IMG/VR virus record: IMGVR_UViG_3300043467_001216
Direction: 5' to 3' (one strand)
DNA: 64,000 bases
DNA from: a virus
Taxonomy: Duplodnaviria > Heunggongvirae > Uroviricota > Caudoviricetes
Shown: positions 8,434-48,428 of the stretch, piece after piece
How the letters are laid out: each line of letters opens with the position of its first letter
Numbering within the stretch: position 1 is the stretch's first letter
Made by a program: the position numbers and the translations under genes
Notes under the pieces: generated by a model
Database searches by the model: none
What the model was told of the DNA's origin: nothing
Seen by the model: the letters and a program-made list of their open reading frames with translations, nothing else

Positions 8434-8553
8434 ATGAGAACAACTGAACAACATATTAAACAAGTAAGTCAATCGAAACAGATTCGCGTGTGTAGCGTAT
8501 CGTATCCGATGTGGTTTATCACGTCATATGGTTCAGAAAACATATTAAGTTAG
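8434..8553 (+). CDS. leader peptide 1 of tRNA operon 1 (MRTTEQHIKQVSQSKQIRVCSVSYPMWFITSYGSENILS)
   Basis: 39 codons after A-rich start; codons 6-29 all read by operon-1 tRNAs; contains antiterminator strand. Confidence 0.8.
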   Translation: MRTTEQHIKQVSQSKQIRVCSVSYPMWFITSYGSENILS

Positions 8554-8612
8554 TTATAAACGTATAACAATTTGATAAGACCCCTGAACCAAAAGTTCGG
8601 GGGTTTTTTTTT
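8529..8612 (+). terminator. attenuator 1 (terminator/antiterminator)
   Basis: Terminator AGACCCCTGAAC-CAAAA-GTTCGGGGG-T9 (8578-8612); TGGTTCAG 8529-8536 complements CTGAACCA 8584-8591. Confidence 0.85.
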
Positions 8613-8621
8613 GAAATAAAA

Positions 8622-8688
8622 TTTGGAAGTTACGAAATGAAATTCGTACCTTTGACAACAGAAAAGTTCATTGACATATTGGTTTAGA
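8622..8688 (+). promoter_or_regulatory. sigma-A promoter plus boxA-like element
   Basis: TTTG 8622, TACCTTTG 8647-8654, GTTCATTGACATATTGGTTTAGA 8666-8688. Confidence 0.75.
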
Positions 8689-8695
8689 TAAATAA

Positions 8696-8782
8696 GGAGA
8701 GTATCTGGCAGGATGAAGAGCTACTCTTGAAAAGTAGTAAGACGTGTAATGGGTCTTGTGGGTTCGAGTCCCACACTCTCCT
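8696..8782 (+). tRNA. tRNA-Ser(TGA)
   Basis: GGAGAGT/ACTCTCC acceptor; CTACT-CTTGAAA-AGTAG; long variable arm; TTCGAGT. Confidence 0.9.
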
Positions 8783-8797
8783 CAAAAAAATAGAGTT

Positions 8798-8923
8798 ATG
8801 GTAAAAAGAGAAGTATTGACGGGAACATTTGAGTCAAGTAAAAGATTTTTAAGACAAGAGCCTAAAGAGGTTAAACTAAAATTCAGATTAATTAGAAAAT
8901 TAATCAAAAGGTTACATAAGTAA
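8798..8923 (+). CDS. small basic hypothetical protein (41 aa)
   Basis: MVKREVLTGTFESSKRFLRQEPKEVKLKFRLIRKLIKRLHK* fills the inter-tRNA gap. Confidence 0.5.
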   Translation: MVKREVLTGTFESSKRFLRQEPKEVKLKFRLIRKLIKRLHK

Positions 8924-8930
8924 CCATTAT

Positions 8931-9005
8931 TGTCCTGTAGGCGACGTTGGCAGAGCCACCACACTTTGAATGTGGATATCGCAGGTTCGATTCCTGCCGG
9001 GACAA
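8931..9005 (+). tRNA. tRNA-Gln(TTG)
   Basis: TGTCCTG/CGGGACA; CCACA-CTTTGAA-TGTGG. Confidence 0.92.
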
Positions 9006-9088
9006 CAATAAAACAATTAGTTATTTCACGTTAAAAGATGGTCTTATAGGCTCACGAAGGCCGTGTCAACATCAATAACTAATAAATT

Positions 9089-9161
9089 GGGTCAGTTGCC
9101 AAGTTGGTCAAGGCACTTGTCTGAAGAACAAGCAATGGGGGTTCGATTCCCTCCTGTCCCA
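9089..9161 (+). tRNA. tRNA-Phe(GAA)
   Basis: CTTGT-CTGAAGA-ACAAG; GGGGG-TTCGATT-CCCTC. Confidence 0.9.
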
Positions 9162-9241
9162 CGAGGTCCTGAATTAACAGGATACCCCCACCTCCGATAT
9201 GGCAGTCAGTCCGTTAAGCTGATGAAGTGGGGTTTTTATAT

Positions 9242-9318
9242 GGTGGCTATAGTGTTAGTGGTCGAGCACGTAAGTTTGTGGTTCTTATAGGTTGGGTTCG
9301 AATCCCAATAGTCACCCA
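9242..9318 (+). tRNA. tRNA-His(GTG)
   Basis: G-1 present; anticodon loop TTGTGGT; TTGGG-TTCGAAT-CCCAA. Confidence 0.88.
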
Positions 9319-9572
9319 ATTAATTTTTAAAACTTAGAAATCACAGAGACAGAAAAAACATTTATCAGTTCCGACTTAGAAAATGGTCGATGGTTATCTC
9401 CAATCGTAAGTGAAAGGAAATGGCAAGAAGAAAAATTAGTTGAGATATTCGGTCATTATCCGAACGCAAGTCCTAAATGGCTATATCTCAATGGTTTGAT
9501 ACACATTGCATTAGATTACATTAAACAAAATGAAGAAAAAATTTGACAAGTTGTAGGTTAAAAACCACAACT

Positions 9573-9770
9573 ATGAGTACAAACATCAACAGAGCAAAAC
9601 TGAACAAAGCACAAAATGGTAGAGAATACCGAAATAGATTGATAAATGACTTTTATCCAATTTATTGGGATGACGGAATTACTTTCTACGGAAACAAAAT
9701 GAGTTATCAAGTTAGAATGTATAAGACTTGGAAACACTACAGAAAAACTCAATATAAGGTAATAACCTAA
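9573..9770 (+). CDS. small basic hypothetical protein
   Basis: MSTNINRAKLNKAQ...MYKTWKHYRKTQYK; ATG 9573. Confidence 0.7.
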   Translation: MSTNINRAKLNKAQNGREYRNRLINDFYPIYWDDGITFYGNKMSYQVRMYKTWKHYRKTQYKVIT

Positions 9771-9865
9771 TAATGGGTGAATATTAGGTTAAAACCTAAT
9801 AATTGATGAATATAAGGCTGGAACCTTATAATGGTCGATTATAAGTCTCCAACCTTATTATTTGG
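9751..9865. repeat. four tandem 29-nt palindromic units
   Basis: Units at 9751, 9780, 9809, 9838; approximate consensus AATATAAGG-N4-AACCTWATAAT. Confidence 0.85.
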
Positions 9866-9935
9866 TTCCTTGGTGTAATGGATAGCACCTATCGCTACGG
9901 ACGATAATGTCAAGGTTCGAGTCCTTGGGGGACTA
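9864..9935 (+). tRNA. tRNA-Arg(ACG)
   Basis: TATCG-CTACGGA-CGATA; CAAGG-TTCGAGT-CCTTG. Confidence 0.92.
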
Positions 9936-9975
9936 CGTATCCGATGTGTGATACCGAGCTAGGTCGGTGTAATTT

Positions 9976-10063
9976 GGAAGATTACCCAAGTTGGTGAAGG
10001 GGTCACATTGCTAACGTGATAGGTCTGAAATATGACGCGTGGGTTCGAGCCCCACATCTTCCG
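9976..10063 (+). tRNA. tRNA-Ser(GCT)
   Basis: GGAAGAT/ATCTTCC; loop TTGCTAA; long variable arm. Confidence 0.92.
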
Positions 10064-10070
10064 CAGAAAC

Positions 10071-10140
10071 ACCGAGGCTTAGAGGAAAAGAACTATCTCT
10101 CATAAGGATGGTCAAGTGGGTTCGAAACCCATACTCGGTA
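10071..10140 (+). tRNA. tRNA-Met(CAT), atypical D arm
   Basis: ACCGAG/CTCGGT acceptor; loop CTCATAA; GTGGG-TTCGAAA-CCCAT; weak D arm. Confidence 0.7.
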
Positions 10141-10161
10141 CAAAAAAATATTACAAAGGTA

Positions 10162-10230
10162 TTGTGAGAATGGAAATGATTACTTATCTTTGTTAGACAA
10201 AAGAAAAGGTCTTTGACATATTGGTTTAGA
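10162..10230 (+). promoter_or_regulatory. internal sigma-A promoter plus boxA-like element
   Basis: TATCTTTG 10185-10192; GGTCTTTGACATATTGGTTTAGA 10208-10230. Confidence 0.75.
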
Positions 10231-10239
10231 AAGAAATAA

Positions 10240-10314
10240 CGGGGTGTAGTCTTGGGGTGAGACGCTTGGTTTGGGACCAAGAGGCGGCAGGTTCGACACC
10301 TGCCACCCCGACCA
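10240..10314 (+). tRNA. tRNA-Pro(TGG)
   Basis: CGGGGTG/CACCCCG-A-CCA; CTTGG-TTTGGGA-CCAAG. Confidence 0.95.
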
Positions 10315-10322
10315 AAAATTAA

Positions 10323-10396
10323 CGGAATGTAGCTCAGCTGGTAAGAGCATTCGCCTGATACGTGAAAGGTCGTAGGTTCGAACCCTACCATTCCGA
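10323..10396 (+). tRNA. tRNA-Ile(GAT)
   Basis: CGGAATG/CATTCCG; TTCGC-CTGATAC-GTGAA. Confidence 0.92.
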
Positions 10397-10522
10397 CTAC
10401 TTAATACCGAATCGGGTTTGTCAGTAAAGTGGGACCCTGCGACTATGACACTTAGGTGTAATTAGAGAAAATGACATTAAATAACCCACCACGGAAGGTG
10501 TTATCGGTGACCTTCTATTTTT

Positions 10523-10597
10523 GACTTCGTAGCTCAGTTGGTTTAGAGCAGTACACTTTTAATGTACGGGTCGTGAGTTCGATTCTCACCGGGGTCA
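10523..10597 (+). tRNA. tRNA-Lys(TTT)
   Basis: GTACA-CTTTTAA-TGTAC. Confidence 0.95.
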
Positions 10598-10605
10598 CAA
10601 TAATT

Positions 10606-10677
10606 AGCCCTTTAGCTTAAAGGTGAAGTACTTGTTTTACATACAAGATAGTGTAGGTTCGAGTCCTACAGGGGCTA
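10606..10677 (+). tRNA. tRNA-Val(TAC)
   Basis: CTTGT-TTTACAT-ACAAG. Confidence 0.9.
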
Positions 10678-10787
10678 CAAAATGTTAAGTTGGGTTTCCT
10701 AGTGGTAACGGTATGAACTATAGTAAGTAAGCCACAAGATTCTAGTAATAAGCGACAGATGGATTACTCGCGACTTAATATTTAATT

Positions 10788-10861
10788 GGACAGATGCCTG
10801 AGTGGTTTAAAGGGGTGGACTGCAAATCCACTATCCGGGGGTTCGAATCCCTCTCTGTCCT
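10788..10861 (+). tRNA. tRNA-Cys(GCA)
   Basis: GTGGA-CTGCAAA-TCCAC; U73 discriminator. Confidence 0.95.
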
Positions 10862-10887
10862 CAATGAAATATATTGTTTCATTATTT

Positions 10888-10959
10888 GCATCATTGGTGT
10901 AATGGCTAGCATAAATGGTTCCAACCCATTTGGTCAGGGTTCGAGTCCTTGGTGGTGCG
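10888..10959 (+). tRNA. tRNA-Trp(CCA)
   Basis: AATGG-TTCCAAC-CCATT; G73. Confidence 0.9.
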
Positions 10960-11030
10960 CAAATATCGTAGGAGAGTTGATTAAGTTCAAACCCGCCGTT
11001 AAATTGTGAAGGACAATCTACGATATATTC

Positions 11031-11113
<83 letters not shown>

Positions 11114-11191
11114 CAATAAAAAAAAATTTAAACCAATTGTTGACACTTTTCAAAACTTTGATATATTTAATTAGTAAAGAATAACAAAATT

Positions 11192-11266
11192 ATGCAAAAC
11201 TTGAATAACATACTAATAGCGAGAACGGAGGGAGACAATCCTTGTGTATCGGAGAAGGTGTGTTAA
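11192..11266 (+). CDS. leader peptide 2 of tRNA operon 2 (MQNLNNILIARTEGDNPCVSEKVC)
   Basis: 24 codons after A-rich start; codons 3-16 all read by operon-2 tRNAs; contains antiterminator strand. Confidence 0.8.
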   Translation: MQNLNNILIARTEGDNPCVSEKVC

Positions 11267-11322
11267 TTCATTAAACATAAAATTTAAATGAAACCCTTCT
11301 CCAAAAGAGAGGGGTTTTTTTT
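11251..11322 (+). terminator. attenuator 2 (terminator/antiterminator)
   Basis: AAACCCTTCTC-CAAAA-GAGAGGGG-T8 (11291-11322); GGAGAAGG 11251-11258 complements CCTTCTCC 11295-11302. Confidence 0.85.
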
Positions 11323-11332
11323 GTTACCTACG

Positions 11333-11404
11333 TTTGGTAAATCAAAATAAAAGCATTAGATTTGTCAGACAAAAGAAAAAAGTTCTTTGACATATTGGTT
11401 TAGA
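11333..11404 (+). promoter_or_regulatory. sigma-A promoter plus boxA-like element
   Basis: TTTG 11333, TAGATTTG 11357-11364, GTTCTTTGACATATTGGTTTAGA 11382-11404. Confidence 0.75.
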
Positions 11405-11411
11405 AGTTAAT

Positions 11412-11484
11412 ATCCTCGTGACGGAAAGGTATACGTCCTTGTCTTAGAAACAAGGTTTTGTGGGTTCGAATCCCACCGAGGATA
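11412..11484 (+). tRNA. tRNA-Leu(TAG), short variable loop
   Basis: ATCCTCG/CGAGGAT; CTTGT-CTTAGAA-ACAAG; 5-nt variable region. Confidence 0.88.
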
Positions 11485-11490
11485 CATAAT

Positions 11491-11564
11491 GGTTCAGTAG
11501 CTCAACAGGTGAGAGCAGGACGCTTATATCGTCAAGGTTGGGGGTTCAAATCCCTCCTGAACTA
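11491..11564 (+). tRNA. tRNA-Ile(TAT)
   Basis: GGTTCAG/CTGAACT; GACG-CTTATAT-CGTC. Confidence 0.85.
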
Positions 11565-11595
11565 CTGAAAAAATAAAAAATAAAAAATAAAAATT

Positions 11596-12111
11596 ATGTC
11601 AATATATAGTGTTGGTAGAAAAACTTACGGTTCTGAAAATATTAAAATTTACGAATGGGGTGAAGGTAAAACAATTAAAATAGGGTCTTTTTGTTCAATA
11701 GCAACAAATATTCAAATTTTTATTGGGGGTAATCATAGACCTGATTGGATTACAACATTCCCATTTCCACATTCGTTTAGTGTGGGTCATCCGTCATCTA
11801 ATGGTGATGTTATAATTGGTAATGATGTTTGGATTGGTGCTAATGCAACAATAATGTCAGGTGTTATTATTGGTGATGGTGCCGTTATTGCAAATAATTC
11901 TCACGTAGTAAAAAATGTTGAACCTTACACTATTGTTGGAGGTAATCCAGCTAAACCTATCCGTAAAAGATTTGATGATGAAACAATTCAAAAACTTTTA
12001 AAATTAAAATGGTGGGATTTTAATGATGATGAGATAAATAGAATAACCCCAATTTTATGTTCTAGTAATATAAACGAATTGTTTGAATTATATAAGGATA
12101 AATTACTTTAA
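11596..12111 (+). CDS. CatB/Vat-like hexapeptide-repeat O-acetyltransferase
   Basis: IGSFCSIA, GGNHRPDWITTFPF, IGNDVWIG, VGGNPAKPIRKRF, LKWWD. Confidence 0.9.
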   Translation: MSIYSVGRKTYGSENIKIYEWGEGKTIKIGSFCSIATNIQIFIGGNHRPDWITTFPFPHSFSVGHPSSNGDVIIGNDVWIGANATIMSGVIIGDGAVIANNSHVVKNVEPYTIVGGNPAKPIRKRFDDETIQKLLKLKWWDFNDDEINRITPILCSSNINELFELYKDKLL

Positions 12112-12142
12112 AAAAAGTCTTGTATAATCAAAAGTAAATACT

Positions 12143-12193
12143 TAGATTTGTAAGACAAAAGAAAACAAAAGGTCTTTGACATATCGGAATAGA
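12143..12193 (+). promoter_or_regulatory. internal sigma-A promoter plus boxA-like element
   Basis: TAGATTTG 12143-12150; GGTCTTTGACATATCGGAATAGA 12171-12193. Confidence 0.7.
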
Positions 12194-12204
12194 AAAAATA
12201 AAAT

Positions 12205-12278
12205 GTCGCGTTAGACGAGTGGTTTAAGTCGTCACCCTTTCAAGGTGAAAATCACGGGTTCGAATCCCGTACGCGATA
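12205..12278 (+). tRNA. tRNA-Glu(TTC)
   Basis: TCACC-CTTTCAA-GGTGA. Confidence 0.95.
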
Positions 12279-12283
12279 CATAT

Positions 12284-12355
12284 CGCGGGATGGGGGAGTG
12301 GTCACCCCGCTGGGCTCATAACCCTGAGACACAGGTTCGAATCCTGTTCCCGCTA
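12284..12355 (+). tRNA. initiator tRNA-fMet(CAT)
   Basis: C1 mismatch; GGG/CCC in anticodon stem; loop CTCATAA. Confidence 0.92.
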
Positions 12356-12361
12356 CTAAAT

Positions 12362-12546
12362 AAAACAAGTGAGGACGGTGAGTAAACCCTCACTGTCTAT
12401 AAATCCCAAGACGGTACTTGATTCGCGGTAGTAAAGTTATTGAGGGTAGAATTACTATAAGTCTGGGATTAGCTACCCAAATGACGAAAATGTAATCACC
12501 GAGTAAAATTGGTTATGATGTGTAATGGTCACGAAAAACTTGTTTT
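12362..12546 (+). ncRNA. structured inter-tRNA RNA (~185 nt), family unknown
   Basis: Closing stem AAAACAAGT/ACTTGTTTT; hairpin GACGGTGAG/CTCACTGTC; AATCCCA/TGGGATT; possible pseudoknot GGGTAG/CTACCC. Confidence 0.6.
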
Positions 12547-12554
12547 TTTAAAAT

Positions 12555-12626
12555 GGTCTATTAGTGTAGTGGCTAACATACATCCCTGTCACGGATGTGC
12601 CGCGAGTTCGATTCTCGCATAGACCG
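12555..12626 (+). tRNA. tRNA-Asp(GTC)
   Basis: CATCC-CTGTCAC-GGATG; G73. Confidence 0.95.
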
Positions 12627-12847
12627 CGGGAGTGTACACAGTAGAGTTCTGTTTGAGAGAGGATTGTAACACGCACTTTAAAATGAGGTTACAAGGTATC
12701 AAACCGTTTATTCAGTTTTGACCGATAAAAACTGACGATTTTTTGAGAAATTTTAAGTCGATATAAAATTTCTTCGTGATATTAGTAGGTTTGGCCGCCT
12801 CATCACGTTAATGTGATGAAACATACCCAATGGAGTAATCACAACTT

Positions 12848-12920
12848 GCGGTAGTCGTATAATGGTTTATTATATAACCTTGCCAAGGTTAGGACGGAGG
12901 TTCGATTCCTCTCTACCGCT
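12848..12920 (+). tRNA. tRNA-Gly(GCC)
   Basis: TAACC-TTGCCAA-GGTTA; U73. Confidence 0.93.
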
Positions 12921-12969
12921 CAAAATAAAGGAGTTATAACCCTTTATATGGATGGTTCGAAACATCCGA

Positions 12970-13043
12970 TTGAGTATGGTGTACGGTGCACGGATGATGG
13001 TAATACGGATTCAAGATTAAGGTTCAATTCCTTATTATTCAGC
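12970..13043 (+). ncRNA. tRNA-like element lacking a canonical anticodon arm
   Basis: TTGAGTA/TATTCAG acceptor-like stem; GTGT/GCAC D stem; TAAGG-TTCAATT-CCTTA T arm; no 5-bp/7-nt anticodon arm. Confidence 0.5.
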
Positions 13044-13066
13044 AAAGAGAAATAACACTCTTAATT

Positions 13067-13139
13067 GGTCTCTTAGTATAATGGCTTATTATTCTGGCTT
13101 TGTAACCCAGAGATAACGGTTCGAATCCGTTAGGGACCT
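13067..13139 (+). tRNA. tRNA-Thr(TGT)
   Basis: CTGGC-TTTGTAA-CCCAG (C:C mismatch at the pair closing the loop). Confidence 0.88.
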
Positions 13140-13145
13140 CACAAT

Positions 13146-13217
13146 GGACTATTAGCTCAGCGGTAGAGCAATCGGCTGTTAACCGATAGGTCGTAGGTTC
13201 GAATCCTTCATGGTCCG
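13146..13217 (+). tRNA. tRNA-Asn(GTT)
   Basis: ATCGG-CTGTTAA-CCGAT. Confidence 0.95.
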
Positions 13218-13276
13218 CAAAAAAGAGGAAAAACTTGTGTAGGTGCCTCAAGGGACTGCTGCCCTACTACACTCAA

Positions 13277-13356
13277 GGACCTGTGGTGAAATTGGTATAC
13301 ACGCTTTCTTTAAGCGGAAGTTCTTAGGATTGTGGGTTCGACTCCCACCAGGTTCA
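13277..13356 (+). tRNA. tRNA-Leu(TAA)
   Basis: CTTTC-TTTAAGC-GGAAG; variable arm. Confidence 0.9.
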
Positions 13357-13442
13357 CAATAGTGTCTCAGAACGCTCTGATAAGGTAACTTATTAACGAT
13401 GAGGTCTCGGTAGACAGAACGCGTCTGATTCTACCCAAATTA

Positions 13443-13515
13443 GCGGGTGTCGTATAGTGGATTATTATATTAGACTTCCAATTTAAAGACGAGGGTTCGA
13501 TTCCCTCCACCCGCT
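13443..13515 (+). tRNA. tRNA-Gly(TCC)
   Basis: GCGGGTG/CACCCGC; loop CTTCCAA. Confidence 0.93.
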
Positions 13516-13630
13516 CAAAATAGACAACAAACTCTTCACCGAGGAAAACCTTTAAAACAGATTCACAACTATAAAGGTCGTTGAGTTGGGTAATAATAAA
13601 TGTGAGTATTACCTGTTGTCTTTTTATTAT

Positions 13631-13706
13631 GGGGGTATCGTATAATGGCTTATTACGGTAGATTTGCAATTTACAAATCTGGTTTCGATTACCAGTACCT
13701 CCACCA
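13631..13706 (+). tRNA. tRNA-Ala(TGC)
   Basis: G3:U70 identity pair; loop TTTGCAA; encoded ACCA. Confidence 0.93.
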
Positions 13707-13712
13707 TATTTT

Positions 13713-13785
13713 GGTCCTATGATGTAACTGAATAGCATAAGCCCCTTCTAAGGGTTTCGTTGGGGTTTGAATCCCTGTAGGACTA
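13713..13785 (+). tRNA. tRNA-Arg(TCT)
   Basis: AGCCC-CTTCTAA-GGGTT; T loop TTTGAAT. Confidence 0.88.
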
Positions 13786-14145
13786 CTCGTTGTGATGACG
13801 GATACGATGACAATTTGAACAAAGTAAATCACATTTATCAAGTTCTTTAATTATTTTATCCCAAGAACGTTTTCGTAAGTGAGTCCATTCAACATCTTTT
13901 TGTGATGGGTCACGATGATGAAAATCAAAAATAACATATGGTGATTTAGGGTATGAATTAGAACAATCTAAACATTTACCACCTTTATACTCAATAGCTT
14001 TTATTTTTGTTTTAATCCAACGTTCAGAACAATATTTATTGAAGCAGACTTTACATTTTGATTGTTTTGAAGGTCTATCGTTTTGTTGATAGAATTCAGT
14101 TACTGATTTTTCTTCATTACACGAAGTACAAATTTTAGTTTCCAT
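13783..14145 (-). mobile_element. free-standing HNH homing endonuclease gene
   Basis: METKICTSC..CKVC zinc finger; GGKCLDC, FDFHHRDP, LLCSNCHRIRH; ATG 14145 preceded by TATTTAT; tRNA 3' fragment on the far side. Confidence 0.85.
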
Positions 14146-14421: not shown

Positions 14422-14528
14422 TATTTATTGACCGAGTGGTTTAAGGTTGAGCATACATAAAGTCTGGGAATGTGGTATGTATGATACCTATACACGGGGA
14501 CTCACAGGTTCGAATCCTGTATTGATAA
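14422..14528 (+). ncRNA. tRNA-like RNA with enlarged central domain
   Basis: D arm ACC-GAGTGGTTTAA-GGT and T arm ACAGG-TTCGAAT-CCTGT flank ~53 nt with a CATACATA/TATGTATG stem and 16-nt loop. Confidence 0.6.
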
Positions 14529-14592
14529 CGTAATTCTAAACCAATATGTTTTTTTTTTCATTTAAGAATATTTATTAATAAACAATTTTAAG

Positions 14593-20114: not shown

Positions 20115-20311
20115 AAAAATTTAATTACAAAAAATATCAGTTATTAGATTGTTTAGATGAAATATCATCAACACAAAAAATGATTGATTTACATAGTGAT
20201 AATTCAGATAGAATTAGTAATTTTATGATGTCTCAATATAGAGATATGAGAAAACAAAGTATTATAGAATTTAATAAAATATCATATGGAAAGAAAATTA
20301 GCAACGATTAG
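20111..20311 (+). CDS. hypothetical protein
   Basis: 66 aa; ATGA overlap with previous gene. Confidence 0.6.
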   Translation: MKKFNYKKYQLLDCLDEISSTQKMIDLHSDNSDRISNFMMSQYRDMRKQSIIEFNKISYGKKISND

Positions 20312-21320
20312 ACAAATTGACAACATCCAACCAATCGAAGGTGCGGATATGATTGAATTAGCAACCGTTGGGGGGTGGAAAGTCGTAGTTGCAAAAAATG
20401 TTAACCACAAAGTTGGGGATTTAGTTGTTTACTGTGAGATTGACTCTTTTTTACCAATCGAACCTGAGTTTGAATTTTTACGTAAAAGTTCTTACAAGAA
20501 AATGGCCGACGGTACTGAAGGTTTCAGATTAAAAACTATTAAATTAAGAGGACAAGTTTCTCAAGGTTTAATTTTACCATTAAAAGATGCTTACGAAGTT
20601 TTCAAAAGAAACACTCCCAATATAGATATGGATTGGTTTGAAGGTTTAGAAGTAACTGAAATGTTAAACATTGTAAAATACGAACCACCTGTTCCTGCAC
20701 AATTATCAGGACAAGTTAAAGGTATGTTCCCATCTTTTTTAAAGAAAACTGATGAGGAAAGAATTCAAAACTTGACAAGAGAGTTTGAAGGGTACAAGAA
20801 CGAAGTGTTTTATGTGACTGAAAAGTTAGATGGTTCTAGTGTAACTTACTACGTTAAAGACGGTGTGTTTGGTGTATGTTCTCGTAACTTAGATTTAGTT
20901 GAGAGTGAAGGTAACTCAATGTGGAAATTTGCAATCACAAGTGGATTAAAAGAACGTTTACTAGCGTTAGATAGAAACATTGCGGTCCAAGGGGAAATCA
21001 TTGGTGAGGGTATTCAAGGTAACCCATATAAAATCATCGGACAAACTGTTAGATTGTTTAATGGTTTTGATATTGATAAGTATGAATATTTATCTTTGGA
21101 TGATTTACTTAAATTATCTAAATGGTTAGAGGTAAAAACAGTTCCAATCTTAGATTTAGAATTTAGATTACCTGACACAATTGATGAGTTATTATCTTAT
21201 GCCGATAGTAAATCAGTATTGAATGAAAAGTTCGATAGAGAAGGAATTGTAATTCGTTCTCACGATAGAAAAATCAGTTTTAAGGTGATTTCTAATAAAT
21301 TTTTATTAAATGAAAAATGA
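20286..21320 (+). CDS. RNA ligase, Rnl2-like (DRB0094 family)
   Basis: RKLATI..I..I.PI.GAD N-domain; TEKLDGSS, QGEIIG, REGIV, SFKVIS. Confidence 0.9.
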   Translation: MERKLATIRQIDNIQPIEGADMIELATVGGWKVVVAKNVNHKVGDLVVYCEIDSFLPIEPEFEFLRKSSYKKMADGTEGFRLKTIKLRGQVSQGLILPLKDAYEVFKRNTPNIDMDWFEGLEVTEMLNIVKYEPPVPAQLSGQVKGMFPSFLKKTDEERIQNLTREFEGYKNEVFYVTEKLDGSSVTYYVKDGVFGVCSRNLDLVESEGNSMWKFAITSGLKERLLALDRNIAVQGEIIGEGIQGNPYKIIGQTVRLFNGFDIDKYEYLSLDDLLKLSKWLEVKTVPILDLEFRLPDTIDELLSYADSKSVLNEKFDREGIVIRSHDRKISFKVISNKFLLNEK

Positions 21321-22270: not shown

Positions 22271-23326
22271 ATGAAAGCAACGTTAGAAAAATATTACAAC
22301 GATGGATTATTGTACAAACAAGTACATTCAACTTTACCATTAACTATATGGAATTACACTGAGAAAGTTCAGTTTGAAGACTTATGGGATGAGGTAACCT
22401 TGATGTGCCGTGGTTTAGTAACTGACGATAACGGTAATATAGTTGCAAGACCATTCAGAAAATTCTTCAATATGGAAGAAGGGAAACATACTTCAACTGA
22501 TGAATTCAAAGTCTATGAAAAAATGGATGGTTCATTGGGTATATTTTTCCACTATGAAGGTGAATGGGTGATGGCAACTCGTGGGTCATTTACTTCTGAC
22601 CAATCGGTAAAAGGTATGGAAATGTTATCTAAATACGACTACAACAAATTACATAAAGATTTCACTTACTTATTTGAAATAATATATTCTGACAACAGAA
22701 TAGTTTGTTCTTATGATTTTGAAGATGTTGTTTTACTTGGTGCGGTAAACACTAAAGACGATTACGAAGTTAGTTTACACGGTGACTCAGATATAAGAAT
22801 ACAAAACTTAGTGAAAAACATAGGTCTTAATGTAGTTAAACGTTATGATGGTATATCAGACTATTCAGTGTTAAAAGAGATGGTTAGAGACGATGCTGAG
22901 GGGTTTATAGTTCACTTCTCAAATGGTAATAGAATGAAAGTTAAAGGTGTTGAATACTTACGTCTACACAAAATAATGACTAACGTATCAACTACTGGTA
23001 TATGGGAATGTTTAAAAAATGGTGATGATGTTTTAGAATTGATGAAAGAAGTTCCTGACGAATTCTACAAAAAAATAAAATCTTACGTTAAAGACTTGAG
23101 ATACGCTCACTACTCAATATCCGAATACTGTGGTAAAATGCACGACGGATTTAGATACGGAAAATATGGTGACGTTGACCCTGAACCATCTAAGAAAGAA
23201 TACGCAGAGTTTGTTATGAAAAACATAAAAGAAGGTCTTAGAGGTGTAATGTTTCAGATGTGGGATAAAAAAGATTACGATGAAACTATATGGAAACTAA
23301 TAAGACCGGAATTCAAAAAGTTATAA
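22271..23326 (+). CDS. RNA ligase 1 (T4 Rnl1-like)
   Basis: CRGLV, ARPFRKFFN, EKMDGSLG, TRGSF, FEII, EGFIV, KVKG..Y. Confidence 0.9.
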   Translation: MKATLEKYYNDGLLYKQVHSTLPLTIWNYTEKVQFEDLWDEVTLMCRGLVTDDNGNIVARPFRKFFNMEEGKHTSTDEFKVYEKMDGSLGIFFHYEGEWVMATRGSFTSDQSVKGMEMLSKYDYNKLHKDFTYLFEIIYSDNRIVCSYDFEDVVLLGAVNTKDDYEVSLHGDSDIRIQNLVKNIGLNVVKRYDGISDYSVLKEMVRDDAEGFIVHFSNGNRMKVKGVEYLRLHKIMTNVSTTGIWECLKNGDDVLELMKEVPDEFYKKIKSYVKDLRYAHYSISEYCGKMHDGFRYGKYGDVDPEPSKKEYAEFVMKNIKEGLRGVMFQMWDKKDYDETIWKLIRPEFKKL

Positions 23327-25047: not shown

Positions 25048-25926
25048 AATTATCCGTTCAGAATGTTTGATGATGAGACCCTTGTGGTTGATTTTGAGTA
25101 ACAAACTGATAAAGATATTTGGCCGTGTATGGTCATTAAATAAACTACGAAAGTAGGATAAAGTGGACCCCCAAGTGTAACGGGTCTGCGTCTTGGGAAA
25201 CTGAGGTCGAGTACACAAGCGGGATACCGTATAACCTTTAGTATCGAGGTCAACGATGTAGAGAAAGTGGTTATATGATTTGGTGATGTGGGTCATCAAA
25301 TTGAGGTGGGAACACCAATAGGAATAACTCGTAGGAATTATGTGAGAAATAGTGTTATCCGATATTATTATTACGAGTTCCAATATAAGAGGTGACTTAA
25401 AACCGAAAGGTATGAAAACAAACAGGTGGTGCTGACATTTTCCTTGATTATTCTTTACCAAAAGAATTTTCTCGAAGTAATCTTAAAATATTGAGGTAGG
25501 GATACTTCACAGAGTAGTTTGGTATTTCGTTGTTCAAAAGACGACGAATCTAAAAGACGGACCACTACTTTGATTCATCCACAACACAAAAACTTTAATT
25601 TACAAGGTTAATGTAAAAATTAAATTATAAATTTAAGCAAAAGTGTTCGTCAGGTAATAGTGAAAGGTGACTACATAGTAATGAGCAGTTCATTGCCTAG
25701 GAAGACCGCAAGTCGACCTAAATTCTTACCAAAAACCTCTAATCTCGCAAGGATTAATTGGGAAGGCATTCTCGAAGAGAGTTGAGTAATGAGAGAGTAA
25801 CTATTATCTCAAGGAGTGGTTCACCTAAAAAACCGTCACTGAGGAATACTTCTCAAAAGGAAGTGGATAAGAAGGGAAACAATAATCCTTCAAAAGGTTC
25901 TCAATAATACGTATAATCTCAGCGTT
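25048..25926 (+). ncRNA. large ornate ncRNA, GOLLD-like (~880 nt)
   Basis: No long plus-strand ORF; raised GC; many GNRA hairpins (CTAC-GAAA-GTAG, ACC-GAAA-GGT, GCAA loops); own promoter/boxA; next to a tRNA. Family inferred from size and context; ends approximate. Confidence 0.65.
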
Positions 25927-25937
25927 TTTTTATATAT

Positions 25938-26010
25938 AGCAGGGGGGAGGTAAGGTATCTCATCGGTCTCATAAGCCGACCCAAGCTGGTTCGATTCCGG
26001 TCCGTTGCTA
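25938..26010 (+). tRNA. tRNA-CAT (Met or Ile2), bulged acceptor stem
   Basis: TCGGT-CTCATAA-GCCGA; GCTGG-TTCGATT-CCGGT. Confidence 0.8.
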
Positions 26011-27130: not shown

Positions 27131-27519
27131 TGGTGGAGATAGAGGGACTCGAACCCTCGTGTCGTACATTTTAAGTATTAAGGACTACACGCTTAGGTCA
27201 ACATTTTCTAATGTTCCGAAAATAGTTATTTTTGTTCTTCACCATCGTAAAAATAACAACCAATGGACGATTCGATTTACGGACTCAATCGTTTTTCCGT
27301 CTTTTTAAAGACTTCTGTTCCTGGGTTATATGTCCATCGACCCGCGTCGTCGTAACTTCTTAAGCTACAACAACTTCTTCTTCACGGATTAATCCGATTT
27401 TAGAAAGAGTATTTAAAACGTTGCCGTTTGTACTTCGATACCATAGATTTAAGTGATAGATATCGTCTCACTGCGTGCCCCGAATAGTTAACCATGTCGG
27501 TCAATTCCAAGTTATCCCC
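27131..27519 (-). ncRNA. ssrA: tmRNA
   Basis: 5' GGGGATAA..GGAATTGAC; 3' GAGGG-TTCGAGT-CCCTC-TATCTCC-ACCA with G3:U70; tag frame GNVLNTLSKIGLIREEEVVVA* (27425-27360); upstream TATATTTG and boxA. Confidence 0.92.
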
Positions 27520-27616: not shown

Positions 27617-28972
27617 ATGAGTGAAATCCTATATCAAGATGACCTATCAAAAGTTATATTAGTAGATAACGTAGAAGATATTAAACAATACACAGATGTT
27701 GAATTTGTTGATAATGTAGTTGAGTACTTTGAGGATTATAAAGATGATGGTGATTTGTATTTAATACATAAGAATCGACAACATCAATATTACATTTTCC
27801 AACAATCAATCTCTAATATGGATTACTTTGATGAAGAATTTAATAAGGTAAGTGTGGTTGATTTCAAGACAAATTTGAAAGATGCTGGATTTACAGGTGC
27901 TCTTAGATATATCAATGAGAATATAGGTAGTGATAATACTGATATTTATGATGCCGTTTTAAAACTATCTAAAAACATACCTATTAATAAAAGTTATCTG
28001 AGACTGTATAACGATAACATTAGTGATGTTAAAATATCTGAAAAAAATCCTAGTAGGTCTATTTTTGTGTTAAAATTTGACGATGACGAATACTTTCAGA
28101 TATTAAATTTAGATGAGGATGAAAGATATTTTTTAAATAGTGTTTATTCTTATTACGGGTATCAATGGTCCGAATCTGCGGATTTACAATCTGAATGGGA
28201 TGAGGGTTATATAATGGGAGGTTTAAATGTTGAAAATTTGAATAAGATTAAAACGGTATTAATAAATAATGGTGAAGAAGAATTATCACAATTAATTGAT
28301 GACGATGCGGTTCGTAAAGCTGTTAGAATGTTGGAGGATTTATATCCTGATGAGGTCGATAGGATTATTCGTGAATATGGTTATGCTATGGATGAGGAGT
28401 CCGATAAGGAGGCTAAAGCAGATATTAATAAGTATTATTGTAATCCATTATTTAGATACGGTATTATTATGTCTAGTTGTATGAGTAAATATCTTGTATC
28501 AGTAACTAAATTGAAACAAATATATGATGAGGTTGGTATCCCTGAATTATCACTTCCTGAAGTATTACAAAAATATTTTGAAGACCGTGGTGTTAGTTTT
28601 GACCAAAATCTTCAAGAATATAGATACGAATATCAACAGGTTGATACCGAACAATTTAACCGTAATGCTAGTTCGGAATTAGATAAAATGGTTTCGGATT
28701 CTGAATCTGAAATGGATGAAAATTCTGGAAAAATTAAAGAAATTATTAAAAAATACGGAGTAAGAAAGAATGTTAAAACACCAAAAGGTGCGTTCCGTAT
28801 TAATAGTTATGATTTAAATAATGGAACTATTGATTACACTTTTAGTAAAGGGGAAGACTATGTTGGGTATAGACCCGAAAGAAGACGAGCAACATTGGAT
28901 GATTTTAACACATTCTTAAATAACTACGAATTATTCGAAAATAAAATAATTCAATTATTGAAACGATTATAA
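27617..28972 (+). CDS. hypothetical acidic protein
   Basis: 451 aa; TATTTAT 27593. Confidence 0.8.
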   Translation: MSEILYQDDLSKVILVDNVEDIKQYTDVEFVDNVVEYFEDYKDDGDLYLIHKNRQHQYYIFQQSISNMDYFDEEFNKVSVVDFKTNLKDAGFTGALRYINENIGSDNTDIYDAVLKLSKNIPINKSYLRLYNDNISDVKISEKNPSRSIFVLKFDDDEYFQILNLDEDERYFLNSVYSYYGYQWSESADLQSEWDEGYIMGGLNVENLNKIKTVLINNGEEELSQLIDDDAVRKAVRMLEDLYPDEVDRIIREYGYAMDEESDKEAKADINKYYCNPLFRYGIIMSSCMSKYLVSVTKLKQIYDEVGIPELSLPEVLQKYFEDRGVSFDQNLQEYRYEYQQVDTEQFNRNASSELDKMVSDSESEMDENSGKIKEIIKKYGVRKNVKTPKGAFRINSYDLNNGTIDYTFSKGEDYVGYRPERRRATLDDFNTFLNNYELFENKIIQLLKRL

Positions 28973-46616: not shown

Positions 46617-48428
46617 ATGGGTGCATTATTAGAATCAGGTCTTGTTGGTAACATCGGATTAAAACATTTAAAAGTTATCAAAGAAGACACTATTAATAAA
46701 TGGGATAAATTAGGTTTCCTAGACGATTTAAAAGGACACTTAAAAGAAAACGTAGCTCAATTATATGAAAACCAAGCGTCTTTCTTAATTAATGAGGCTA
46801 CTGCAGAAGGTTCAAACGGAGCGTTTGAAACTGTAGTTTTCCCAATCGTAAGACGTGTGTTCTCTAAATTATTAGCGAACGACATCGTATCAGTACAAGC
46901 AATGAACTTACCAATCGGTAAATTGTTCTACTTCGTACCTAAAATCCAAGGATATAACACAAACAACGAACATTTCGCTCCTGTAGGTGCTCCTAACGGT
47001 GCTAACGTTGGTGATGGTTATGGTGCTGGTAGTACTTATGCTAACCAAAACTTGTATGACTTATTCTACGAAGGTTCTGAACCAGGATTAAATCCAGCAG
47101 GTTTATTCGACTATTCTAAAGGACAATTCACAGCAGTAACTGCGTCAACAAGAGTTCAAGTTTGGAATGGTTCTAATTTAGTTGATGAAACAACAGAATT
47201 AGATGGTGAAACTGTAAGAAAAGTTATCATCAAAGTTTCAGGTTTCTCTAACGTTGGTGCTGGTAAATTAATCGGTCCTGATGGACAAGAAATGGATACT
47301 GAAACTTTCTTATCTGATTTAGTTGTAACTAAAGGTGCTGGTTTATCAATTACCGCAACTTCAGCTTGTGAAGTAGCGTCTAACACACCATTATTGTTTA
47401 GAGTTGTGACTCAACAATACGGTAAAGGAATCGTTCAATACGGTGAAAGAAGAAACACTACATTTGGTGCCGCTCAATCAAACACAGGTGGTGGTTCGTT
47501 CCAAGATATTTGTGATGCTGAAGGTTTCATCTATTTAGAAGTTGATTTATCTTGTCCGGCTTGTGTTGGATGTGGTGCTGACACTTTAGATGGTTATACA
47601 GGTACAACAATTACATCAGCAGGAACTGAAAACTCTTTCGTGGCAATTTACAAAAGATATAAAGAATTAGAATTCGAAGACAAAATTGGTGAGGTTTCTT
47701 TCGATTTAGAATCAGTAACTGTTTCTGTAACTGAAAGAAAATTAAGAGCACAATGGTCTCCTGAATTAGCTCAAGACGTTGCTGCTTTCCATAACATTGA
47801 TGCTGAAGCTGAATTAACAGCTTTATTGTCAGAACAAGTTGCGGCTGAAATCGACCGTGAAATTTTACGTGACTTACGTAAAGGGGCGGCTTGGAACCTA
47901 CGTTGGGATTACAACGGATGGAGAAGAATTAACGGTTTAACTACATCTTATACTCAAAAAGATTGGAACCAAACGTTGATTACTGCGATTAACCAATTAT
48001 CAGCACAAATTCACAAATCAACATTAAGAGGTGGGGCTAACTGGATTGTTGTTTCTTCTGAAGTTTCAGCTATCTTTGACGATTTAGAATACTTCCACGT
48101 ATCTAACGCGTCTCCTGAGCAAGACCAATACAATATGGGTATTGAAAGAGTTGGTACATTAGCTGGTCGTTACCAAGTTTACCGTGACCCTTACTTCCCA
48201 CCAAACACAGTATTGTTGGGTCATAAAGGAACGTCATTGTTAGACACAGGTTACATCTACGCACCGTATGTACCTCTACAATTAACTCCAACAATGTATA
48301 ACCCATTCAACTTTACACCTATCAAAGGTATAATGACGAGATACGCTAAGAAAATGGTTAACAACCGTTTCTACGCGAGAATCACAGTTGATGGTGTTCG
48401 TACATTTGACTTGAGAGAATTGAGATAA
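46617..48428 (+). CDS. major capsid protein (T4 gp23-like)
   Basis: FPIVRRV, VSVQAM..P.G, RKLRAQWSPELAQD, AEIDREI, YAPYVP, GIMTRY. Confidence 0.97.
   Translation: MGALLESGLVGNIGLKHLKVIKEDTINKWDKLGFLDDLKGHLKENVAQLYENQASFLINEATAEGSNGAFETVVFPIVRRVFSKLLANDIVSVQAMNLPIGKLFYFVPKIQGYNTNNEHFAPVGAPNGANVGDGYGAGSTYANQNLYDLFYEGSEPGLNPAGLFDYSKGQFTAVTASTRVQVWNGSNLVDETTELDGETVRKVIIKVSGFSNVGAGKLIGPDGQEMDTETFLSDLVVTKGAGLSITATSACEVASNTPLLFRVVTQQYGKGIVQYGERRNTTFGAAQSNTGGGSFQDICDAEGFIYLEVDLSCPACVGCGADTLDGYTGTTITSAGTENSFVAIYKRYKELEFEDKIGEVSFDLESVTVSVTERKLRAQWSPELAQDVAAFHNIDAEAELTALLSEQVAAEIDREILRDLRKGAAWNLRWDYNGWRRINGLTTSYTQKDWNQTLITAINQLSAQIHKSTLRGGANWIVVSSEVSAIFDDLEYFHVSNASPEQDQYNMGIERVGTLAGRYQVYRDPYFPPNTVLLGHKGTSLLDTGYIYAPYVPLQLTPTMYNPFNFTPIKGIMTRYAKKMVNNRFYARITVDGVRTFDLRELR

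Follow-up and report, generated by a model that had tools for sequence, protein, structure and literature searches.

Codon-matched leader peptides as predicted attenuators of two tRNA gene blocks in an uncultured T4-like phage

In the window analyzed here, a 64,000-nt stretch of DNA forming part of the genome of an uncultured giant freshwater phage of the T4-like type, read-through into the second of two tRNA gene blocks is probably controlled by a multivalent ribosome-mediated leader-peptide attenuator of the trp/ilv type, and a twin of this predicted switch stands before the first block. This reading, which draws on sequence comparison and folding models, had been put forward in an initial annotation of the DNA and was supported by the analysis: the leader codons follow the tRNA content of the blocks, the antiterminator and the terminator covary, and the distance from the sensed codons to the antiterminator fits a stalled ribosome.

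No close relative in culture was found: the nearest GenBank records to the capsid gene (at 46617) were 34–42% identical, Flavobacterium phage immuto among them. Promoter motifs of the TAnnTTTG type, the consensus described for Bacteroidetes (PMC9723704), together with leaders almost devoid of Shine-Dalgarno sites, pointed to a host in the Bacteroidetes. Twenty-five tRNA genes were called between 8696 and 13786. Block 1 (8696–11114, plus strand) contained 13 called tRNAs and a weak elongator Met-CAT at about 10070–10141, which scored 23 bits with Rfam and was missed by ARAGORN in the window, while ARAGORN called Met-CAT at the equivalent position in two relatives (L047 and L067). Block 2 (11412–13786, plus strand) contained 11 elongator tRNA types and the initiator Met, in the order Leu-TAG, Ile-TAT, Glu, fMet, Asp, Gly-GCC, Thr, Asn, Leu-TAA, Gly-TCC, Ala, Arg-TCT. 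The two blocks carried complementary tRNA sets. The first acceptor pair of the block-2 tRNA at 12284 was mismatched, and a degenerate, low-scoring Arg-ACG-like tRNA at 12971–13043 was called by ARAGORN only at a relaxed threshold; a degenerate tRNA of this kind was also called in L130 and L067.

Several other elements were observed in the same region. An ORF resembling hexapeptide-repeat acetyltransferases (11596–12111) was inserted into block 2, many spacers between the tRNAs (9016–13621) looked structured and had no Rfam match, and at 14428–14532 a tRNA-like element, which had a long hairpin in its middle and motifs of the D and T loops, received no ARAGORN or Rfam call. Two RNA ligase genes were located near the cluster, at 20286–21320 and 22271–23326, with the domains PF09414 with PF21189 and the T4 Rnl1-type PF09511; their position 6.5–9.5 kb downstream is in keeping with a conflict over tRNAs. 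The window also carried a GOLLD RNA (25510–25925), followed by a tRNA-Met (25936–26009), and, on the minus strand, a tmRNA (27131–27519).

The leader of block 2 was a 24-codon ORF at 11192–11266 (plus strand) with an A at position -3 and no Shine-Dalgarno sequence. Its codons 3–16 (11198–11239) were found exactly as listed initially, each being read by block-2 tRNAs, and they sampled 10 of the 11 elongator types of the block. Nine types fell within the ten codons of the core (codons 7–16), whereas Leu-TAA was sampled by TTG at codon 4 only. The statement that Gly-GCC was the sole unsampled type held for Gly-GCC itself, but the Arg-ACG-like gene was unsampled too, and if that gene is functional the coverage would become 10 of 12. 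The run ended at codon 17, as had been noted; this codon is CCT, a Pro codon of block 1, and the break lies 11 nt before the antiterminator.

Codons read by block 2 made up 49% of the codons of the phage, which puts the chance of 14 consecutive ones at 4.7e-5, or 2.2e-4 if any position in the ORF is allowed. A single one of 150,000 simulations gave the joint pattern, a run sampling at least 10 types, and of the 15,101 14-codon windows taken from real genes not one consisted of block-2 codons throughout. Codons 2–6 partly correspond to a conserved MKNLN-type start that was kept in L092, whose block lacks Asn and Leu tRNAs. In a profile over 20 leaders, the block match at codons 2–5 was only 0.5–0.7, and therefore the working sensor here would be mainly codons 7–16 with their nine types; the first codons would thus double as an AT-rich start. 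Within the family of this leader, indels came in multiples of three inside the ORF, but not in the spacer.

The segment 11251–11258 (plus strand), at codons 20–22 of the leader, was confirmed as the exact complement of 11295–11302, which lies in the 5' arm and loop of an intrinsic terminator (11290–11322, plus strand; 12-bp stem plus U tract, about -16 to -18 kcal/mol). The computed energy of the antiterminator duplex was -12.4 kcal/mol for the core and -15.8 kcal/mol when extended; an 8-nt complement by itself has a P of about 0.017. The region folded with a z-score of about -6, and one compensatory change from A-U to U-A in the antiterminator–terminator pairing was found in the family. A segment of this kind, 6–11 nt long and 4–9 codons ahead of the stop, was present in 45 of the 46 curated leaders. 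Its target was the terminator 5' arm or the loop, and the sequences varied between lineages in step with the terminator.

The arrangement had also been described as the geometry expected if a stall must leave the antiterminator free, and both the positional match profile and a stall model agreed with it. Counted from the antiterminator, the block match over the 20 leaders was 0.85–1.0 for codons -12 to -4 and 0.33–0.58 from codon 0 onward, the drop coming about three codons ahead of it. When the nascent RNA was folded with the ribosome masked, the antiterminator was kept for stalls up to codon 16–17 (with 11–15 nt shielded) and lost later; depending on the footprint chosen, this boundary falls anywhere from codon 15 to codon 18. 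In computations on the full transcript at equilibrium the terminator won at almost every stall position, and hence the decision of the switch must be kinetic, that is, co-transcriptional. In the untranslated leader a fold of -24 kcal/mol, a candidate protector hairpin, covered only part of the antiterminator segment, the antiterminator having a probability of 0.65 without a ribosome. Codons ending in G were enriched in the sensors (44% vs 16%), which could raise their sensitivity or just serve the RNA structure.

The twin before block 1 was a 39-codon ORF at 8434–8553 (plus strand), in which codons 6–29 were all read by block-1 tRNAs and sampled 14 of 14 types, the weak Met-CAT included; an internal ATG codon fits the weak gene as the putative elongator Met of this block. 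Its antiterminator (8529–8536), target (8584–8591), and terminator (8577–8612) were arranged on the plus strand as in leader 2. The sensor regions of the two leaders cross-matched at 0.00.

A first DNA pattern search was dominated by unrelated sequences (35 of 36 matches), L009 being the sole relative. About 100 phage loci were then gathered through the boxA-like motif described below and a neighboring HNH gene. Where these loci had tRNA blocks, most blocks were preceded by an ORF of 22–39 codons and then a terminator; in the curated leaders this ORF ran from ATG to a stop placed 47–66 nt before the U tract of the terminator. The partition of tRNAs among blocks varied by lineage, and in dozens of loci the leader codons tracked their own block. 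Full sampling was observed in the leader of block A in L040 (14/14 types), where the block found from L040 to L056 contains Ala, Phe, Lys, Val, Trp, Arg-ACG, Cys, His, Ile-GAT, Met, Thr, Asp, Ser-TGA, and Glu, in that of the complementary block in L042 (12/12), and in that of the five-tRNA block of L092 (5/5). The leader of L075 sampled 16/16 types, Asn and Arg-TCT having been gained together with their codons. In L075 and L088, Asn had moved to block 1 and the block-1 leader had gained AAT codons, and the block-2 leader of L057 was without the last Asn codon.

Cross-matching of 10 leader–block pairs gave a mean Jaccard index of 0.82 against 0.37 after permutation (0/200,000), with some edits made by hand: in the window, the weak Met was added to block 1 and fMet and the weak Arg-ACG were dropped from block 2, and Ile-TAT was added to block 2 of L056. 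At the level of isoacceptor boxes (AGR/CGN, ATA/ATY, AGY/TCN), 36 of 39 codons matched, with 21.4 expected. A held-out set was built from new loci fetched by the terminator plus boxA pattern only, with the ORF chosen by a fixed rule and no hand edits. Of its 96 scored sites, 92 had a qualifying leader ORF, while two of the other four apparently used GTG starts and two were bacterial chance matches. Clustering at 60% left 15 non-redundant leaders, for which recall was 0.88 (0.555 permuted) and precision 0.82 (0.52 permuted), each with 0/100,000 permutations. Since the leaders are related to each other, they are less independent than the P values from the permutations and the isoacceptor comparison assume, and these values are optimistic; the effect size is not in doubt.

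Among the loci collected, the leader-2 homologues of L212 and L220 appeared to use a GTG start, and ARAGORN called tRNAs with the stop-reading anticodon TTA within leader-gated blocks of L112, L169, and L174. One ORF, in L037, was not counted as a leader: it sampled 9 of 19 types, its antiterminator was misplaced, and the terminator preceded a tmRNA-like sequence. The leader had no match in INPHARED, and in the cultured Flavobacterium phage immuto_2-6A no leader–terminator stands ahead of the 4 annotated tRNAs. The same architecture was found on bacterial DNA at 1286–1570 of L137, a 655-kb contig of Flavobacteriaceae bacterium RhTr2, with a 37-codon ORF in which AGT and Tyr codons occur three times each, an 8-nt antiterminator, a terminator, and a boxA-like motif, followed by tRNA-Ser(GCT), tRNA-Tyr(GTA), and then SPFH and RtcB genes. 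A search of 300 further Flavobacteriaceae genomes for the terminator plus boxA pattern gave no match.

A promoter-like site (TTG ... TATATTTA) was located upstream of leader 2, at 11140–11169 (plus strand). This putative promoter had one mismatch to the host -7 box TAnnTTTG and was also close to the ATATTTAT motif preceding many virion genes, and TATATT/TATTTA was conserved upstream of homologous leaders. A second site, a predicted promoter of the Bacteroidetes sigma-A type at 11333–11364 (plus strand; TTTG, 20 nt, TAGATTTG), had its TAnnTTTG motif at 11357, 35 nt downstream of the leader-2 terminator. It was followed by a boxA-like motif (11382–11393, plus strand), which we take to be a NusB/NusE boxA from its likeness to that of E. 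coli and which was repeated at 8666, 10208, and 12171; another boxA-like motif was seen near 27918 on the minus strand. Each of the four motifs in the tRNA cluster came after a TAnnTTTG promoter and headed a tRNA sub-block, the pairs being located at 8646–8677, 10190–10220, 11357–11393, and 12150–12185. In the window and its closest relatives, host-type promoters were thus present beyond each terminator as well as within each block, and the switch would consequently gate only part of the output here: in these genomes much tRNA may be made irrespective of it, and the attenuator is probably not the sole input to block 2. Our reading is that the host-type promoters would give a basal or early level of transcription, to which conditional transcription through the attenuator would be added. 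About two-thirds of the curated loci had no host promoter between the terminator and the first tRNA, and in several of them the U tract passed directly into a boxA-like motif.

In the mechanism proposed, RNA polymerase would start near 11175 or arrive from block 1, and a ribosome would load on the leader-2 ORF. With all tRNA types of the block plentiful, the ribosome would pass codon 16 and cover 11251–11258, the terminator predicted by the folding computations would form, and transcription would stop near 11320. Scarcity, cleavage, or poor decoding of even a single one of some 10 tRNA types would make the ribosome lag at the corresponding codon and, according to the model, 11251–11258 would pair with 11295–11302 before the 3' arm of the terminator was made. 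The polymerase would then enter block 2, possibly aided by the boxA-like site, and the new phage tRNAs would speed up translation of the leader and reclose the switch, which would make it an OR-gate with negative feedback. The basal or early supply expected from the host-type promoters downstream would be topped up in this way.

Rather than the abundance of tRNAs, the same attenuator could read amino-acid starvation or a general slowing of ribosomes (uncharged tRNA, antibiotics, host shut-off). Classical attenuators do sense charging, a stall at any codon from 2 to 16 frees the antiterminator in the model, and the trn array of Anabaena is turned on by translational stress in general (PMC8421152). 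A general stress sensor, however, would need neither the isoacceptor-level matching nor codons that follow the block, and amino-acid starvation would not be cured by extra tRNA. We consider this alternative improbable as a replacement for a tRNA-supply attenuator, with which such sensing can coexist.

Less probable still is a constitutive insulating terminator, with the tRNAs made from downstream host-type promoters and the ORF being a small protein or the vestige of a switch working only in relatives. The promoters with boxA-like motifs at four sites of the cluster and the dominance of the terminator at equilibrium would suit such an arrangement. Nevertheless, the lineage has kept the ORF, the antiterminator, and the block matching, with indels that preserve the frame; the peptides vary across lineages while the codon-to-block rule stays constant, and the downstream promoter is absent from many relatives. 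Direct pairing of free tRNAs with leader RNA triplets, in the manner of a T-box and with no translation, would account for triplets complementary to the anticodons of the block, but these keep to the reading frame of an ORF that runs from ATG to stop and has indels in multiples of three, the matched run ends where a ribosome footprint would have it end, and no T-box riboswitch was matched in Rfam even at E<=1, all of which leaves this idea very unlikely. A chance codon run beside an ordinary terminator, to which the 49% share of block-2 codons and the P of an 8-nt complement by itself might lend some weight, is scarcely credible, being refuted by the held-out permutation test as well as by the codon-run statistics and the cross-matching.

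The preferred reading, a leader-peptide attenuator gating tRNA genes, has several known counterparts. The E. coli pheST attenuator, with its pheM leader, responds to one amino acid and controls a synthetase; there too a leader peptide governs a component of tRNA supply, which is a synthetase in that case and tRNA genes here. The attenuators of amino-acid operons (trpL, hisL, pheL, and the multivalent ilvB/ilvGMEDA and thr) share with the phage leaders a short uORF rich in the sensed codons, an antiterminator near its 3' end, an intrinsic terminator, and a decision made by translation speed (PMC10272879). However, they control biosynthetic enzymes and not tRNA genes, and they contain runs of codons for 1–3 amino acids, whereas the phage leaders sample 10–14 tRNA types with mostly one codon each, are isoacceptor-specific, and are rewritten when tRNA genes change block. 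The mechanism is therefore classical (PMC10272879), while the target, the valency, and the phage setting are not. In T-box riboswitches (PMC10424219) tRNA status also sets termination, but one uncharged tRNA is bound directly with no ribosome. The trn array of Anabaena PCC 7120, with the phage tRNAs discussed below the closest parallel in function, is, as proposed here, a large tRNA array turned on when translation is impaired, although its description (PMC8421152) mentions neither a leader nor attenuation and no codon-matched sensor. Among the Rfam leader families (Trp, His, Phe, Thr, Leu), the best match was Phe_leader, at 24.8 bits against a gathering threshold of 55 and covering the terminator part only. 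No leader-peptide attenuation of tRNA genes was found in the literature covered, which was thin for subscription journals; leader-peptide attenuation as such has been indicated in flavobacteria (PMC9723704).

Phage tRNAs that oppose anticodon nucleases (PMC11555353, PMC10264068) offer a likely reason for the tRNA supply here; in those cases the supply comes from a strong promoter and no sensing of depletion is described. We give about even weight to the proposal that the switch is triggered when tRNAs are depleted during infection, whether through host anticodon nucleases or through a general decay of RNA. Slightly more tentative is the wider idea of an inducible counter-defense, in which multiplexed codon sensors would detect when any single tRNA type is lost, be it to host anticodon nucleases or to a missing wobble modification, and turn on the replacement block with feedback; the sensor would be re-edited when tRNA genes change block, and the enriched G-ending wobble codons would make it hypersensitive. 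On this view, bacteria may also employ such a device in their responses to tRNA damage, as the copy next to RtcB in a Flavobacteriaceae genome would suggest.

A switch of the kind proposed would extend attenuation to tRNA genes, with a valency far above that of known leaders. In practical terms, leader codons offer a means of assigning tRNAs that were called ambiguously or overlooked, the weak Met at 10070 being one example, and the leaders could be ready-made reporters of tRNA depletion. The purpose that large sets of tRNAs serve in phages has been a matter of debate for 50 years, between codon compensation and the replacement of tRNAs destroyed by the host (PMC10264068). Blocks of tRNA genes gated by codons would imply supply on demand, and a switch responding to slow decoding of the codons of its own block would make this debate directly testable.
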